The notes beneath the pieces are model-generated. The model saw only the letters and a list, made by a program, of their open reading frames with translations, made no database searches and was not told the origin of the DNA. From Candidatus Schekmanbacteria bacterium (GTDB lineage Bacteria > Schekmanbacteria > GWA2-38-11 > J061): a stretch of DNA of 30,054 bases. Of the stretch, positions 21,923 through 30,053 are shown one piece after another. The stretch's first letter is position 1. Every line of letters starts with the position of its first letter. The translations under genes and the position numbers were made by a program. Location of the stretch: assembly GCA_003695725.1 (NCBI GenBank), contig RFHX01000040.1:1-30054 (forward strand), in the 5' to 3' direction.

Positions 21923-22079
21923 AATAATAGTAAAAATTTTACATTCTTTACAAAAATTTTACTGTTTATATATTGTATCTTTTATCTAAATATTATACTG
22001 AACATTTTCAAATCAATGTTCTATTTAGAACATTTTTTTTATATCGACTGAAAGTCAATTAAATGAGGGAGGTAAATTG

Positions 22080-23522
22080 ATGAATATTCTTTTAGGAATT
22101 CTCATAGTGCTTGTACTTTTGGTAGGAGGAGCTTATGCTCTCATTAAGTATAAAAACAGGCCTCCAAAACCGGATCTTTATGAAGTCTTTTTGAAACAGG
22201 ATACTACTCCTGTAGGTAAAGTGGGAATTTTTGTCACAGGGCTCATTATGCCTGAAAACCATAGCCATGCTTTCTTTCACAATATTATTAAAAAGATAAA
22301 CAAAGTAGTAATTCCCTGGCCTATCAATATTCTCACAATGAGGGATAAAGGGATTGCCCTTCTTGACCCGAACAATACTCACGCCCGAGAGGAATTTACT
22401 CCAACTCATTTAGAAGATGCTTTTGGCAATGACTGTGATAGGGACGGGGTGCCCTATATCGAGTTGTATAAGCAGGGAAAGGTAAAATGGATGCCTCCCT
22501 CATCCCGCATTTATCTTGACCATGGATATTTTTTATATACAGGACGCCTTTCAGGAGAGCCTTCTCTCTGTGGAAAGGTTGCTAATAAATCAAGACTCTA
22601 TTATTACGGACATGGAATTAAACAACGAAAACTTCCTCACTGGCAGCAGACGAAAGAGATGCTTGAAAAGGGATTTGAGATTATAAAATCCAAATATAAT
22701 GATGTCGTTTGCGGCTGGGAGACAGGGCTTATATATTGGAATATGAGAAAAAAACTCTTTGAAATTCTTGACCAAGGCATCGATACTTTGATTGCTTCAT
22801 CACCAATGGGGATATATTCACATTTTGAGGATTTCAACTCGAGCTTTCGGCATATTTTTGAATATGTTGAAGAATGGGAAAAGGAACATCCGGGTAAAAA
22901 GATAAAGATAATTATGGCTCCTCAAATGGGAGATTTTCAACCATTGCGTCAGGCATTTCTCGAAATGCTGAAAGACCGTCTTGATACTTTGCCAGAAGGA
23001 AGCAGTGTGATGGTTGCTGTAACCTGTCATGGAATGCCATGGGATGCTTTCCCTTGGGAAGCATGGCTTAAGCAGGCACCACCTTATAGAGATAAGCTTT
23101 ATGAGGAAGTCAAGGAGTTGGTTGGAAAATACAATTTCAGTAAAACAAGGGTTGTAATTTGTCAGGATGAATTTGCTGACCCCATTTGGGACCCAAATGA
23201 AAAATATTTAAGCACTAACAGGGCATATTGGAATGCTATCAATGATGGTTTTGATTACTGTATAGGGCTGCCGATAGAGTTTTTTGCTGAAAATTCAGAT
23301 ACCCTTATGCATCACGCAATGAAGAATTATCAGGGCTTTGATGATTATGATATTGAAGAACCAATAGATTATCCTGACTGGTCAGTCCCTTATACGAGGC
23401 AGTTTAAACAGAATAATACGACTGTAATTTATAATGGTGTCCCTGTTGGAAAATATCAAAAATATGTAGTTGAAGCATTTGTCCAATCTCTTGAATCTGT
23501 CCTGTCAAAAAGAAAGAATTAG
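22080..23522 (+). CDS. Membrane-anchored ferrochelatase-like (class II chelatase fold) protein of unknown function
   Basis: GGAGG SD at 22068-22072; N-terminal TM helix; segments matching HemH/CpfC by eye (VGIFVTGLIMP, PMGIYS, VTCHGMP, LPIEFFAENSDTL). About 480 aa, much longer than typical HemH. Confidence 0.6.
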   Translation: MNILLGILIVLVLLVGGAYALIKYKNRPPKPDLYEVFLKQDTTPVGKVGIFVTGLIMPENHSHAFFHNIIKKINKVVIPWPINILTMRDKGIALLDPNNTHAREEFTPTHLEDAFGNDCDRDGVPYIELYKQGKVKWMPPSSRIYLDHGYFLYTGRLSGEPSLCGKVANKSRLYYYGHGIKQRKLPHWQQTKEMLEKGFEIIKSKYNDVVCGWETGLIYWNMRKKLFEILDQGIDTLIASSPMGIYSHFEDFNSSFRHIFEYVEEWEKEHPGKKIKIIMAPQMGDFQPLRQAFLEMLKDRLDTLPEGSSVMVAVTCHGMPWDAFPWEAWLKQAPPYRDKLYEEVKELVGKYNFSKTRVVICQDEFADPIWDPNEKYLSTNRAYWNAINDGFDYCIGLPIEFFAENSDTLMHHAMKNYQGFDDYDIEEPIDYPDWSVPYTRQFKQNNTTVIYNGVPVGKYQKYVVEAFVQSLESVLSKRKN

Positions 23523-25033: not shown

Positions 25034-25098
25034 AAGCATCCTTACTTGACAAATCAGAATATTTTATTATTGATTAGATAATTGAGAAATTGAGTTAA

Positions 25099-25184
25099 TT
25101 TTTTTTCGAAAAAGGTAAACCCTGTGGAAGCAGGGGGCACAAAGCCAACGGGTCCAGGAGGGACGGCCGGGTTGCCGAAAAAAA
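25099..25184 (+). ncRNA. Cyclic di-GMP-I (GEMM) riboswitch aptamer
   Basis: P1 TTTTTTTCG/CGAAAAAAA; GGTAAACCC-TGT-GGAA-GCA-GGGGGCACAAAGCC (P2 with GNRA loop); P3 AGCC..CGG-GTCC/GGAC..CCG-GGTT; conserved GGGTTGCCGA. Lies in the 5' leader of a CDS. Confidence 0.92.
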
Positions 25185-25195
25185 GAGATAACAGT

Positions 25196-25232
25196 ACCTC
25201 TTTCTCGGTAAATCCGGGAAAGAGGTTTTTTT
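25196..25232 (+). terminator. Riboswitch expression-platform terminator
   Basis: ACCTCTTTCTCGG-TAAAT-CCGGGAAAGAGGT (13 bp, one G-U) followed by a T tract, 33 nt before the ATG at 25266. Confidence 0.9.
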
Positions 25233-25265
25233 ATATATTTTTTTAAATTTAAAAGGAGGAAAAAA

Positions 25266-27113
25266 ATGAAAAACCAAAGCAAAAAAATTCTGACATTTTT
25301 TTTAATTTTAACAATTTTTGCTTTTCTGCCAAATTTTAGCAAAGCAAAGGCAATAAAGAAAGCCTCCATTGTTCCTTCAAAGGCGAAAATACAAGCAAGC
25401 AAAAAAATAGATTTAAAATTTGTCGTTAAATCAAAAGGGAAGGTAAAGAAAGGAGCCCTTTGGTATGTCAACGGTCTTTTAGGTGGAAATGATGCAGTGG
25501 GAACGATAACCTCGAAAAAAGGCGGAAGAAAAGCTGTATATGAAGCTCCTGACCTTCCTCCGAATCCATCAACAGTAATTATAAGAGCTGAGAGCAAGGA
25601 AGATTCTTCAAAAACGGCTACTGCAAAGATTATCATCAAAGATAAGAAGATAAAGAAGAAGAGTGCAAAAATAAAGGGTGTTGCTGCAACAGGATTGCCG
25701 ATTGCAGGAGCGCCGGTTGAAGTAATAAACAGCATTGGGGAAATCGTAGGAAATGATACAACAGAAAACGATGGTTCTTATCTTGTCAAAATCAAGAAGA
25801 AAAAATATGAACCTCCCTTCCTTGTGAAAGTGACACCTGAAGGTGAAAAACCGTTATATAGTATTGCTTCAGGAGATTCAAAGATTGCAAATGTAACACC
25901 TTTAACTGACAAGGCAGTCGAAAGTTTTATTGTCAAGAATGGTGGCAGTGTAAGCGATGATGATTATTCGGATGATATCAAGAAGATAAAGGAAACTGTT
26001 GCTGATTTCGACGGAGAGTTTGAAAAAGCAAAGGATGCTTTAGAGAAAGCTTTGGGCATTGATACTCTCAACATTGATTTTGTAAAGTCAAAATTAGATC
26101 CTGAAGATCCTGAAAATGACTATGAAAAGATCTTGGAAACTATAAAAGATTCAATCGAAGCGTCAGGTAAGAATGACATTGATGACCTTATTAAGGTAGA
26201 TGATGATTTTATTGATGTAAATAATGATATAATTCTTCTCTATAAGGACAAAGGGATATTAAGCGATGATAAGATTCCTGAAGATTTTTCGGAAGACGAA
26301 CTTCCAAAGATAGAAGGAGTAATCACCAATCCTCTGACAGTTACAGATACTACTACTATCACGGGAACAGTAATTGTCACAAATACTATAACGGTGAATG
26401 ACATTGACATAATTGTCAGTGATACTGCGAAAATCGTGATCAAGGATGCCAATGGCAATAAAACAGATGGAAGCTTTTCAGATTTGTCTGCAGGCAAGTT
26501 TGTAGAAGTCAAATATTATATTGATGGGGACCTCTTCTATGCAACAGAAATAGAAGTTAAAAATAAGAAAAAGAGCGAGAATGAGGATGATTTGAATGGG
26601 CTGATTACACAAAAGAATGAAATTGCCAAATCAATAGTTGTAGATGGCAAAGCGATTTTCATAAACAATGACACTGAAATCAGGGTTAATGATAGTATAG
26701 CTAGCTTTTCAGATTTGGCTATCGGACAAAAAGTGGAAGTTGATGTCCTCTTGACAGATAACAAACTTGTTGCCACAAAAATTAAAGTCGAGAGCCAGGA
26801 AAGTGAAGACGAAAAAGATGCCGAAGAAGTAAAGGGGATTATTGACAAAATTATAAAATCAAACAACGAAATAGTTGTTGATGGAATTGTTATTGCAATA
26901 ACCCCTGATACGAAGATAGAAATTAATGACACATTGGGTTCATTTTCAGACCTCAGCGCAGGGCAATTCGTGAATATGAAAACAGTTTTTATCAATGGGA
27001 AACTTTCTGCCCTTAAAGTAGAAGTTAAAAATGAAGAAGAGGGAAACAACAATAATGGCGGAAATGACGGTAATGAGAATGATAATGGAGATGGTAATGA
27101 TAATAATCTATAG
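25266..27113 (+). CDS. Secreted/surface protein: signal peptide, Ig-like domain, carboxypeptidase-regulatory-like beta-sandwich, acidic helical region, three DUF5666-like repeats, Asn/Gly/Asp tail
   Basis: AGGAGGA SD; Sec signal MKNQSKKILTFFLILTIFAFLPNFSKA; WYVNGLLGGN..GTI..YEAP..P.PSTV; IKGVAATGLPIAGAPVEV..TTENDGSY; three repeats with SFSDL-x2-G-x2-V. Confidence 0.8.
   Translation: MKNQSKKILTFFLILTIFAFLPNFSKAKAIKKASIVPSKAKIQASKKIDLKFVVKSKGKVKKGALWYVNGLLGGNDAVGTITSKKGGRKAVYEAPDLPPNPSTVIIRAESKEDSSKTATAKIIIKDKKIKKKSAKIKGVAATGLPIAGAPVEVINSIGEIVGNDTTENDGSYLVKIKKKKYEPPFLVKVTPEGEKPLYSIASGDSKIANVTPLTDKAVESFIVKNGGSVSDDDYSDDIKKIKETVADFDGEFEKAKDALEKALGIDTLNIDFVKSKLDPEDPENDYEKILETIKDSIEASGKNDIDDLIKVDDDFIDVNNDIILLYKDKGILSDDKIPEDFSEDELPKIEGVITNPLTVTDTTTITGTVIVTNTITVNDIDIIVSDTAKIVIKDANGNKTDGSFSDLSAGKFVEVKYYIDGDLFYATEIEVKNKKKSENEDDLNGLITQKNEIAKSIVVDGKAIFINNDTEIRVNDSIASFSDLAIGQKVEVDVLLTDNKLVATKIKVESQESEDEKDAEEVKGIIDKIIKSNNEIVVDGIVIAITPDTKIEINDTLGSFSDLSAGQFVNMKTVFINGKLSALKVEVKNEEEGNNNNGGNDGNENDNGDGNDNNL
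26307..27029 (+). repeat. Three tandem intragenic DUF5666-like repeats (about 26307-26561, 26589-26792, 26826-27029)
   Basis: Each has G-x-I...I-x-V-x-G/D..I..T-x-I...SFSDL-x2-G-x2-V...A-x2-I/V-x-V; exact 15-nt match AGCTTTTCAGATTTG at 26472 and 26703. Confidence 0.85.
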
Positions 27114-27157: not shown

Positions 27158-27190
27158 AGGTGGCAGCTATTCAGTGGCTGCCACTTTTTT
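27158..27190 (+). terminator. Intrinsic terminator after the secreted protein gene
   Basis: GTGGCAGCTA-TTCAG-TGGCTGCCAC followed by TTTTTT. Confidence 0.85.
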
Positions 27191-27297
27191 ACCATTCATT
27201 GACAATTGTTTGTCCTTATGCTAACCATTTTTAATGAAAAAAATCGATTGAGCAATCAGTCGGAATTCAATTCAATGTTTAATTGGGAGGATAAAAA

Positions 27298-27789
27298 ATG
27301 AAACTGCCTTCACCCCCGCCAACTCCAGTTGAAGAAAGATGGAAAAGGTTATGTCAAGCATTAGCAGCAGAAAGGATAAATCTTTATTTTGATTTGAAAA
27401 AAATACTTGGCGATGAAAAGGGAGAAGAAGTTTTTAAGAAACTTTATGACGAAGGAATAAAAAGAATAAGAAAAAATTTCCCGGGAGGAAAATTACCAGT
27501 TGGGGAGTTGATGAGAAGAGAGTTGACAAGCTTTCCTATGTTGGGATTTGAATTGACTATTGATGAAGTTGAGGAAGATGGTGAAACAACATATTACGAG
27601 CATCTTACAAAATGCCCCTTTCTCGATATGGCACGCAAGATGAATACTCCTGAGATACCCTGCGATTTTTTATGCAACTATGATGTTGAGCTTGCAATAA
27701 AAGATAAGAGAGGAAGATGGGAAATAATATCACGAATGGGCGACGGCGCAGAGGAATGTGTTTTCAAAATCAGGGAATGGAAGGAATAA
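27298..27789 (+). CDS. Cys-rich ATC-hydrolase-like / V4R-related small protein, paralog 1
   Basis: GGGAGG SD; YEHLTKCPF...PCDFLCNYD...GRWE...MGDGAEECVFKI, resembling the L-2-amino-thiazoline-4-carboxylic acid hydrolase family by eye. Confidence 0.65.
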   Translation: MKLPSPPPTPVEERWKRLCQALAAERINLYFDLKKILGDEKGEEVFKKLYDEGIKRIRKNFPGGKLPVGELMRRELTSFPMLGFELTIDEVEEDGETTYYEHLTKCPFLDMARKMNTPEIPCDFLCNYDVELAIKDKRGRWEIISRMGDGAEECVFKIREWKE

Positions 27790-27833: not shown

Positions 27834-28313
27834 ATGGAAAAGATAATTGGTAAAGATTTCCCATGGGAACAACAAAGAGAAATGCTCATTGAAAGATGTT
27901 CTTTGAAACTTCCGCTTCTTTATAAGAATCTTGTAGCTGCTTATGGTGAAGAAAAGGCAATGGAAGTTTATGACAGGGTCTATGAAGCAAATTTTAAGAG
28001 TCGATTGGGGAAACTTAAAGGTATGGATTTAGGAGATATAATGAGACTGGAGGTTCAGATGTTTCCCGCAATGGGATGGAAAATCTGGATTGAGGAGAAA
28101 GAAGAGGATGATGGTCCTGCGTGGTATGAACATTTAGAATATTGCCCTCATTGGGAAGCGACAAAAAAACATAAGCTTCCGGAGCCCTGTAACATTGTTT
28201 GCGATATGGATTGCAAATACGGAGAAAAATATAAAATAGGGAAATGGGAAAGACTGAAACATATGCCTTCAGGCGACAGTGAATGTTGTTTTAAGATAAA
28301 GAAAGCTGAATAG
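27834..28313 (+). CDS. Cys-rich ATC-hydrolase-like / V4R-related small protein, paralog 2
   Basis: YEHLEYCPHW...PCNIVCDMDC...GKWE...MPSGDSECCFKI; aligns end to end with paralog 1. Confidence 0.65.
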   Translation: MEKIIGKDFPWEQQREMLIERCSLKLPLLYKNLVAAYGEEKAMEVYDRVYEANFKSRLGKLKGMDLGDIMRLEVQMFPAMGWKIWIEEKEEDDGPAWYEHLEYCPHWEATKKHKLPEPCNIVCDMDCKYGEKYKIGKWERLKHMPSGDSECCFKIKKAE

Positions 28314-28319
28314 TTTAAG

Positions 28320-30053
28320 TCATATAATCTTTTTGAATTTGTAATCTTTTACCGATTCGTAAACTTTTGCGTCGATAAATAACCTGACCAAATAAAGGTC
28401 GAGCTTTTTATCCTTTGCCTCATTTAGAAGAATATCTAATGCCTTATCCACAACAACTGCTTTTTTGTAAGGCCTGTCAGCCGCAGTAAGAGCATCATAA
28501 ATGTCTGAGATTGTAATTAGTCGTGATTGAAAGGGTATTTGCCTGTAATTGATTCCTCGCGGATAACCGCCGCCGTCTAATTTTTCGTGATGGCTGTATG
28601 CTATATCTGGAATTCCTTTCAATTCCTTTGTCCACGGGATTTTACTCAAAAAATTGAAGGTATGAGTTACATGGGATTCAATCTCTTTTCTTTCTTCTTC
28701 AGTGAGCGAACCTTTCTTGATGCTCAAAAAATGGAATTCTCTTTCTGATAAGATTGTGGTTTCCTTACCATCTGCACCTACATATTTTTTGTTCACCAAT
28801 TTAGCCAGTTCTGCTGAATTTTCTTCTGGAAGTATTGTAGGTTCATCTGCTTGTTTTATGAGATTAAAATAATAGTCTAATTGTTCAATGTCTTTTTGCA
28901 TCTTATAATTGATTCTATTAATGAAATCCGATTCTGTTTTATTCGGATTTTTTTTGAAAAATTCCGCCTTTCTTTCTGCATAATCTTTTTCTATTGATTT
29001 TTTTATGTAGTCAAAACGTTGTTTGATGATTTCAATTTCGAGTGGATAGAGTTTTTTAGCCTTTACAAGAACATTTTCTCGTACTCCAACTTTGCCAAAG
29101 TCGTGTAAAAGCGTAGCATATCTAAGCTCTTTGATTTCGTCATCACTGAAGTAGATGTCTTTATATTTCCCCCTGTCCAAGTTGTTTATTATTTCTGCAA
29201 GACGGACCGTAAGAATAGCAACTCTTTCTGAATGACCCGAAGTCGTAGGGTCTCGTTGTTCAATGGCTGTAACGGAAGCTTTCACGAAGCCTTCAAAAAG
29301 GTTTTCAATATTTTTATATAGAACATTGTTTTCTATTGATATAGCTGCTTGGCTTGCAAGGGAGTTTACTACTTCCTGACATTCCTTTGAGAAGGGGATG
29401 ACTTCTCTTTTAATGATTTCGGGTCTCAACAATTTTTTTTTGAAATCTCTTTTTCGGTTAATGAGTTGCAGTACCCCTGTTATTTCATCTAAATGATTTT
29501 TCATCGGCACAACTATCATTGATTTTGTTCTATAACCCGTTTTTTCATCAAAACTTTTGTTGAAGGAATAGGGCGAATTGTGATGAATGGAATAAACATC
29601 TTTTATATTGAGCGCTTTGCCTGTGACAGCCACATATCCGGCAAGACTTTCCTTGTTGAGAGGCAATTTTTGGTCTAAAACACTTTCCAAGGAAAGTGTG
29701 TCATTTTGGGCAAGTTTAAAACGAAGAAAGCTTTTTCCATTTTTCTTTTCTACAAGGTATAGGCTTCCAGCATCGGCTGATGATATTTCTCTGCATTTTT
29801 TTAATATAAGCGTTAATAGTTTGTCATAATTTCTTTCAGAAGAAAGTGCAGCGCCAATCTTATTTACTGCTTTAAAGTTTTGTTCGAGTTCTCGATACTT
29901 CTTCTGAAGATGATGGTTTTTTTCTCTTAAAAGAATATTCGAAATAGCATTGTCTATAATCCTTTCTATAATTTCTTCTCGAAATGGCTCCGGCAAGATA
30001 TAATCAAAAGGCTGAATAAACGATGGTTCTGCCTTTTTTACCAATTTCTTTTC
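28320..30053 (-). CDS. GAF + HD-GYP cyclic-dinucleotide phosphodiesterase (5' end probably outside the window)
   Basis: GAF (ADAGSLYLV, SLAGYVAVTG, FDEKTGYRTKSM, GVLQLINRK); HD-GYP (GHSERV, LHDFGKVG, HHEKLDGGGYPRG, DIYDALTAADRPYKK). The frame stays open (GAA AAG AAA) upstream of the TTG at 30044. Confidence 0.92.
   Translation of the reverse strand, partial: EKKLVKKAEPSFIQPFDYILPEPFREEIIERIIDNAISNILLREKNHHLQKKYRELEQNFKAVNKIGAALSSERNYDKLLTLILKKCREISSADAGSLYLVEKKNGKSFLRFKLAQNDTLSLESVLDQKLPLNKESLAGYVAVTGKALNIKDVYSIHHNSPYSFNKSFDEKTGYRTKSMIVVPMKNHLDEITGVLQLINRKRDFKKKLLRPEIIKREVIPFSKECQEVVNSLASQAAISIENNVLYKNIENLFEGFVKASVTAIEQRDPTTSGHSERVAILTVRLAEIINNLDRGKYKDIYFSDDEIKELRYATLLHDFGKVGVRENVLVKAKKLYPLEIEIIKQRFDYIKKSIEKDYAERKAEFFKKNPNKTESDFINRINYKMQKDIEQLDYYFNLIKQADEPTILPEENSAELAKLVNKKYVGADGKETTILSEREFHFLSIKKGSLTEEERKEIESHVTHTFNFLSKIPWTKELKGIPDIAYSHHEKLDGGGYPRGINYRQIPFQSRLITISDIYDALTAADRPYKKAVVVDKALDILLNEAKDKKLDLYLVRLFIDAKVYESVKDYKFKKII

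Follow-up and report, generated by a model that had tools for sequence, protein, structure and literature searches.

A conserved c-di-GMP-I-type riboswitch precedes the gene of an exported Ig-like/DUF5666 protein in an uncultured Schekmanbacteria lineage

Vc2 of Vibrio cholerae is the type example of the riboswitches for cyclic diguanylate (c-di-GMP) known as c-di-GMP-I or GEMM-I (Rfam RF01051). Both ON and OFF switches exist in this class, Vc1 and Bc2 being reported as ON. An A at the position equivalent to Vc2 G20 is the signature of GEMM-Ib, which senses cyclic GMP-AMP (cGAMP). In Clostridioides difficile, PPEP-1/ZmpI is repressed via a class I switch and the adhesins CD2831 and CD3246 are induced via class II. 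Here we describe a riboswitch of the c-di-GMP-I type in a stretch of 30,054 nucleotides from Candidatus Schekmanbacteria bacterium (contig RFHX01000040.1 of assembly GCA_003695725.1; genome G000), referred to as the window. It lies in the leader of the open reading frame (ORF) at 25266–27113 (+), which encodes P0001, a protein of 615 amino acids (aa). A preliminary description, drawn from the sequence without database searches, had proposed a riboswitch-controlled secreted protein of unusual modular architecture. The best explanation overall, to which we give a probability of about 0.6, is that a canonical c-di-GMP-I riboswitch turns the gene off through an intrinsic terminator and that the product is an exported binding or scaffold protein.

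The Rfam match at 25105–25180 has an E-value of 3.7e-12, far beyond chance. RF01051 scores 59.8 bits (gathering score 35; E 3.7e-11 on the whole genome), and RF03167, the c-di-GMP-I-GGC model, scores highest by 0.8 bit (60.6 bits; gathering score 59). From the end of the aptamer (25180) to the start of the ORF there are 86 nt, with the terminator in between. In the covariance model alignments, G25114, A25141 and C25175 are the equivalents of Vc2 G20, A47 and C92; the spacing of G11, A38 and C81 in Bc1 was used for this mapping and is the same here (PMC11218506). The base that follows the P2 helix separates the two models, the RF01051 consensus having A (GACGCAAAgCc) and the RF03167 consensus a conserved G (ACGCGAAgCc). 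The window aptamer reads CACAAAGCC, with A at this diagnostic column, that of Vc2 A47. The same A is present in all 11 aptamers compared across the lineage (the window, L004, L010–L012, L021, L029, L032, L034, L036 and L037), and P2 shows compensatory changes at six pairs among them. Nevertheless, RF03167 outscores RF01051 on 7 of the 11. We infer from the two Rfam consensus lines that "GGC" stands for positions 20, 47 and 92 of the variant, and the literature naming the variant gives no ligand for it.

With A at the A47 equivalent and G at the G20 equivalent, the aptamer is of the canonical c-di-GMP type, neither the GGC variant nor the cGAMP type, and since its diagnostic base is that of canonical binders, c-di-GMP is its likely ligand. 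It is very improbable that the aptamer senses another molecule, either 3′3′-cGAMP or the ligand of the variant class. The top rank of RF03167 (60.6 versus 59.8 bits) and the occurrence, in the same order, of one aptamer with the cGAMP-type A could be cited for this. However, the score gap is only 0.8 bit, the position that distinguishes the two models holds A and not G, the G20 equivalent is G and not A, C92 is kept, and the genome has eight GGDEF matches. Signalling by c-di-GMP is evidently present in the organism, as judged from these matches and from a gene with GAF and HD-GYP (HD_5) domains at window positions 28320–30044 (-), 1.2 kb downstream and convergent on the locus, whose product is likely a c-di-GMP phosphodiesterase. 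This gene is also found in the genome of the same genus (G001); none was seen beside the orthologs in G002 and G004 in the short stretches there. A practical caution follows for annotation, as automated pipelines would mislabel these canonical-A aptamers as variant-ligand riboswitches.

The layout of the leader suggests how the switch may operate. The P1 helix reaches past the Rfam model to 7–9 pairs and covaries across the 11 lineage leaders (U7CG/CGA7, GUCUCCG/CGAAGAGAC, GGUUUUCG/CGAAGAAACC and GCCUG/CGGGC). The terminator at 25196–25232 has 7 G-C among its 13 pairs, a 5-nt loop, U7 and a hairpin energy of -21.5 kcal/mol; each of the five leaders of the gene family has a terminator in the corresponding position. 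When the transcript is folded only up to the terminator loop, without the 3′ arm, the 5′ arm (25198–25208) pairs with CCGAAAAAAAGAG (25175–25187). In five of five leaders, pairing of this arm with aptamer P1 or J1/2 is 3.0–7.0 kcal/mol better than a free arm. The full-length minimum-energy fold consists of P1 and the terminator. Since the 3′ strand of P1 is also a potential partner of the 5′ arm of the terminator, the layout suggests a transcriptional OFF switch. At high c-di-GMP, the ligand would be held by G25114, A25141 and C25175, the A/U-rich extended P1 (25098–25108 with 25175–25185) would close, and the hairpin at 25196–25226 with its U7 would form, so that transcription would end before the ORF. 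When c-di-GMP is low, the terminator 5′ arm would instead be taken up by the P1 3′ strand and the linker (in some orthologs by J1/2 and the P1 5′ strand); read-through would follow, and the mRNA would be translated from the AAGGAGG and ATG at 25266. The unit controlled in this way is probably a single gene, as a weak hairpin at 27173–27195 suggests that it is monocistronic.

Several results weigh against the proposed OFF mechanism. The antiterminator is weak and A/U-rich, and the energy of its duplex does not stand out from those of shuffled upstream sequences, 116 of 300 of which do equally well (z -0.3), with z ranging from +1.05 to -1.5 across the leaders, none significant. Nor is its partner constant: G000 and G002 use the P1 3′ side, G001 and G004 the P1 5′ side with J1/2. 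Of the predicted gain, 0.3–2.4 kcal/mol is left at 70 °C. The OFF polarity therefore rests on architecture and not on statistics, and repression at high c-di-GMP would have roughly two chances in three. The opposite polarity, in which c-di-GMP prevents termination and the protein serves as a biofilm or attachment factor at high c-di-GMP, is unlikely. It would have precedents in ON switches such as Vc1 and Bc2, it would accommodate a statistically unremarkable antiterminator, and a default termination is conceivable given the strong terminator in every full-length minimum-energy fold. Nevertheless, the gap between P1 and the terminator stem is at least 10 nt in all five leaders, so that a closed P1 cannot invade the terminator. 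No separate anti-antiterminator element was found, and outside its own hairpin the terminator arm finds partners only in aptamer strands that ligand binding would sequester.

The riboswitch has been kept together with the gene. By search, the closest genomes are G001 of the same genus, G002 of the same family, and G003 and G004 of the same order, the rest being classed as "same domain"; the lineage is very isolated. Orthologs of P0001 occur in G001 (69% identity), G002 (49%) and G004 (42%), each with an aptamer and then a terminator upstream. In G003, which is 99% complete, the ortholog is missing and neither DUF5666 nor RF01051 gives a match, and a search of genome contigs for related loci returned the same-genus ortholog only. 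The riboswitch control put forward in the preliminary description is thus supported by the Rfam match and by the conserved order of aptamer, terminator and gene in three related genomes; the pairing is genuine, and the regulation is of an ordinary kind. The upstream neighbour changes, being hcp in G000 and G001 and a CRP/FNR regulator in G002 and G004. In the latter two, the regulators (cNMP_binding and HTH_Crp_2) lie directly upstream of the riboswitch (L011:415-1086, +; L012:2924-3643, -). The hcp (Prismane) gene is usually under the control of CRP/FNR-type regulators. G004 contains a second gene of related build (contig C135), with a riboswitch at L021:1291-1371, a terminator after it, and an ORF at L021:1504-2793. 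Its leader, signal peptide and Ig-like (immunoglobulin-like) part are nearly identical to those of the ortholog. The protein has two Ig copies, then a linker rich in Thr, and ends in CBM_4_9 and a dockerin-like tail, as if a cassette of leader and Ig domain had been duplicated and joined to a different C-terminal part.

P0001 carries an apparent export signal and so does not have the appearance of a cytoplasmic protein. The signal peptide, read by eye, has the n-, h- and c-regions of a Sec type I substrate: MKNQSKK, positively charged; ILTFFLILTIFAFLP, a hydrophobic core of 15 residues; and NFSKAKA, with an AxA-like site at AKA or SKA. A helix is modelled at aa 6–19, and the layout is common to the orthologs. 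There is no lipobox, as the whole protein is free of Cys; it also lacks His and has one Trp and one internal Met, with a net charge of about -27. A signal peptide without lipobox had been proposed, and this stands. The word "secreted" stands as far as the signal peptide is concerned; beyond that, the host is a diderm and periplasmic retention is possible.

Structure models were made with AlphaFold2 (AF2) from two separate alignments, one for each half of P0001, because a full-length MAFFT alignment scattered DUF5666 fragments across the Ig region. Fold matches were sought with Foldseek against the PDB. The N-terminal half matches tandems of Big_2/Ig domains (Big_2-CBM56, invasin and intimin) at an E-value of 8.5e-8, and its Ig part has a net charge of +17 over aa 28–130. 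The Ig-like region itself has no Pfam match, and hundreds of homologous repeats are found in other large proteins, some of which match Big_2, Ig_3 or I-set. On the models, aa 30–125 are of the bacterial Ig-like type (Big_2/Ig_3), in line with the Ig-like domain foreseen in the preliminary description and with confidence (predicted local distance difference test, pLDDT) above 90. The following segment had been described as a carboxypeptidase-regulatory-like sandwich. A beta-sandwich is predicted there, and its family name is tentative: over aa 136–208 all Pfam matches are sub-threshold and close to one another in score, Big_6 with 19.9 bits, CarboxypepD_reg (PF13620) with 18.9 against a cut-off of 32.3, and bMG3 with 18.1. 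The acidic helical region is confirmed by a net charge of -25 over aa 229–368; it is poorly modelled (pLDDT below 50) and has no relatives outside the orthologs in protein searches. An Atlas search with this region gave scores at or below 0.85 and unnamed clusters only, and yielded no lead.

The C-terminal half contains three stretches of DUF5666 (PF18914), with 78.7 bits in total against a cut-off of 27. Its AF2 model is all-beta with a mean pLDDT of 85.8, and resembles the tandem oligonucleotide/oligosaccharide-binding (OB) arrays of bS1 and of the cold-shock domains of Unr (Foldseek probability 1.0, E 1e-6). Taken singly, the DUF5666 domains can be superposed on CusF and PilY2, with template modelling (TM) scores, normalised to the target, of 0.59–0.72, and the repeats share an F-x-D-L..G..VEV motif. 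The repeats are thus predicted to be OB folds, as had been claimed; a failure to match DUF5666 or OB folds would have spoken against that claim and was not seen. Each repeat has a net charge of -4 to -7. The Thr-rich insert, which in the alignment is confined to the two genomes of the genus (G000 and G001), and the N/G/D tail are both present. No sortase, surface-layer homology (SLH), type IX secretion system (T9SS) or barrel signal was found in the Pfam and NCBIfam scans, which agrees with the absence of sortase, SLH and beta-barrel C-terminal signals noted before, and the NCBIfam scan returned no family for P0001. Every element listed in the preliminary description is therefore present where it had been placed, the second sandwich as a predicted fold of tentative family. 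The architecture is indeed unusual: only two full-length relatives were retrieved from sets of 5.8 billion clustered and 1.84 billion representative proteins, whereas many proteins are matched by the Ig domain alone or by the DUF5666 repeats alone. The features of the locus are listed in Table 1.

Table 1. Positions of the features of the riboswitch locus in the window.
Feature	Position	Strand	Basis
TTGACA, possible -35 box of leader promoter	25046..25051	+	sequence; weak
5′ strand of extended P1 helix (UUUUUUUUCGA)	25098..25108	+	duplex with 25175-25185, -8.1 kcal/mol
c-di-GMP-I (GEMM-I) aptamer	25105..25180	+	Rfam RF03167 60.6 bits, RF01051 59.8 bits
P1 3′ strand and linker (CCGAAAAAAAGAG), proposed 5′ strand of antiterminator	25175..25187	+	folds; pairs with 25198-25208
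Intrinsic terminator, 13-bp stem, UAAAU loop, U7 tail	25196..25232	+	terminator scan
Shine-Dalgarno AAGGAGG	25253..25259	+	sequence; 6 nt before ATG of ORF 25266
ORF of riboswitch-controlled exported modular protein P0001, 615 aa	25266..27113	+	ORF call, Pfam, homologue searches
Sec-type signal peptide, aa 1-27 or 1-29 (cleavage SKA/K or AKA/I), no Cys	25266..25352	+	read by eye
Basic Ig-like (Big_2-like) domain, aa 30-125	25353..25640	+	AF2 pLDDT above 90; fold matches
Second beta-sandwich, aa 133-205	25662..25880	+	AF2 strands, pLDDT about 80-90; sub-threshold Pfam
Acidic, mostly helical region, aa about 215-345	25908..26300	+	charge; only in orthologs
Thr-rich beta-hairpin insert and DUF5666 repeat 1	26307..26561	+	repeat itself 26373-26555, 24.7 bits; long AF2 strands
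DUF5666 repeat 2 (OB fold)	26598..26786	+	43.3 bits; AF2, Foldseek
DUF5666 repeat 3 (OB fold)	26832..27023	+	32.5 bits; only in genus, by alignment
Low-complexity N/G/D tail	27042..27110	+	sequence; not conserved in orthologs
Weak terminator-like hairpin 3′ of gene	27173..27195	+	terminator scan

The most economical reading of the product is that P0001 is most likely a non-enzymatic component of the cell envelope or surface, whose synthesis would follow the c-di-GMP level. After export by Sec, a basic Ig domain, a second sandwich, an acidic helical region and an acidic array of three DUF5666 OB repeats would act together in binding or as a scaffold; the basic Ig end would grip anionic envelope material and leave the acidic OB array exposed. 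A placement at the surface is opposed by the diderm nature of the organism, which has BamA, and by the lack of a recognisable outer-membrane or surface sorting signal in P0001, so that the protein could stay in the periplasm. It could then be a periplasmic OB protein that buffers cations, metals or stress in the manner of CusF or YgiW/BOF, and not a surface binder. The superposition of single DUF5666 domains on the periplasmic CusF (target-normalised TM 0.59–0.67) and the highly acidic character of the protein speak for this role, which we regard as possible though rather doubtful. However, with no His or Cys and one internal Met, the soft-metal ligands of the CusF type are absent; an extracellular location is suggested by the Ig-like N-terminal modules and by the T9SS tails that DUF5666 arrays carry elsewhere; three secretins are encoded in the genome; and the other riboswitch targets of the lineage are surface or extracellular proteins. 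Two specific activities were considered for the repeats and rejected: DNA binding, since each repeat is acidic, and CusF-like copper binding, since there is no His or Cys in the protein and no Met in the repeats.

The preliminary description had also held that control by c-di-GMP would be a clue to the function of DUF5666, and had proposed a survey of GEMM riboswitches upstream of DUF5666 genes. DUF5666 was found in 28 of 301 sampled genomes. Of these, 24 are unrelated to the present genome; seven of the 24 have c-di-GMP-I riboswitches, none with a DUF5666 gene closer than about 50 kb. The linkage was examined at the genome level, as the contigs of distant DUF5666 proteins are too short upstream. 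The linkage is therefore specific to this gene family in this lineage, and since it does not extend to other DUF5666 genes, its value as a general clue to the function of the domain is limited. In other organisms, DUF5666 arrays have 6–16 copies, and a T9SS sorting domain stands at the end in 5 of 10 scanned, which suggests that the cell surface is the typical place of such arrays. The literature search returned no function for DUF5666 and no report of the target gene family under riboswitch control; the lack of a known DUF5666 ligand counts against a binding role for P0001.

Within the lineage, the other c-di-GMP-I riboswitches precede genes for multihaem cytochromes, a prepilin-type or pilin-like protein, a CBM_4_9 protein, a 1071-aa Ig-repeat protein and a conserved Cys-containing peptide of 52–54 aa, all of them exported or surface-related. 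The second riboswitch of this genome (G000:C240:1488-1578, -, 73 bits) precedes the peptide ORF L004:1168-1326 (-). The peptide, also found in G001 (contig C7, L029:1792-1956), has four Cys and the motif CVQLK..EAVLKACKNDSVSGPHSS.CLIPMCFTQGS, and it has no NCBIfam match. The aptamer with A at the G20 equivalent, the only such case among the 11, is at L036:1501-1577 (G004:C144:5016-5092, +; 57 bits). It has no terminator and lies just upstream of the Shine-Dalgarno sequence of L036:1599-2834, which encodes a 411-aa secreted multihaem cytochrome with Paired_CXXCH_1 and a weak MtrC-like match; this parallels the cytochromes controlled by cGAMP riboswitches in Geobacter. A bolder and improbable proposal is that the GEMM-I riboswitches of this deep-branching lineage form a small outer-face regulon as in Geobacter, comprising cytochromes, the pilin-like protein, the CBM protein, the Cys-rich micropeptide and the Ig/OB protein, with one aptamer switched to the cGAMP-type A20, and that the acidic OB array is a cation- or mineral-binding surface module made at low c-di-GMP. 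If true, it would provide the first functional assignment for DUF5666.

The possible -35 hexamer recurs at a similar distance in the leader of the G001 ortholog; no convincing -10 box was found in the leader, and the promoter scan did not return the TTGACA at 25046. Downstream of the gene, two tandem genes at 27298–27789 and 27834–28313 (+) each encode about 160 aa with several Cys and resemble ATC_hydrolase (PF14196). Upstream, the gene at 22077–23522 (+) encodes a protein of 481 aa that has a hydrophobic segment at its N-terminal end and scores 25.5 bits for Ferrochelatase, slightly under the cut-off of 27; it sits between a pair of genes for an ATP-binding cassette (ABC) exporter and hcp, an order that is kept in G001. 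Among sequencing runs, the one DNA match is to a hot springs metagenome, possibly the sample of origin, and no RNA run is listed.

The locus shares with RF01051 riboswitches the three-helix aptamer, the G20, A47 and C92 equivalents, the location within the 5′ leader of an exported protein's gene and the terminator platform, for which Bc1 of Bacillus thuringiensis is an OFF example (PMC11218506). It differs in its short P3, which lets the GGC variant model score marginally higher, in a P1 that is almost wholly A-U, and in its host, an uncultured hot-spring lineage. The RF03167 variant is similar in overall shape and length, yet its conserved G after P2 is A here and throughout the lineage, and the defining feature of the variant is thus absent. 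Like the DUF5666 arrays P0012, P0016, P0035 and P0039, which are T9SS-sorted and have 6–16 copies, P0001 is exported and built on the OB-type repeat; unlike them, the family has two or three copies joined to the Ig-like domain, second sandwich and acidic helical region, has no T9SS tail, and is the only one in which riboswitch control of a DUF5666 gene was seen. While the kind of regulation is already known, the target is a well-supported addition to the c-di-GMP-I regulon, is conserved in the order and belongs to a barely studied uncultured lineage, and it gives regulatory access to an exported protein built mainly of the functionally uncharacterised DUF5666. A parallel in logic is found in C. 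difficile. The protein families there are unrelated, and the protease and sortase-substrate logic has no counterpart in this diderm host; nevertheless, in both organisms second-messenger riboswitches would decide which exported envelope proteins are made.

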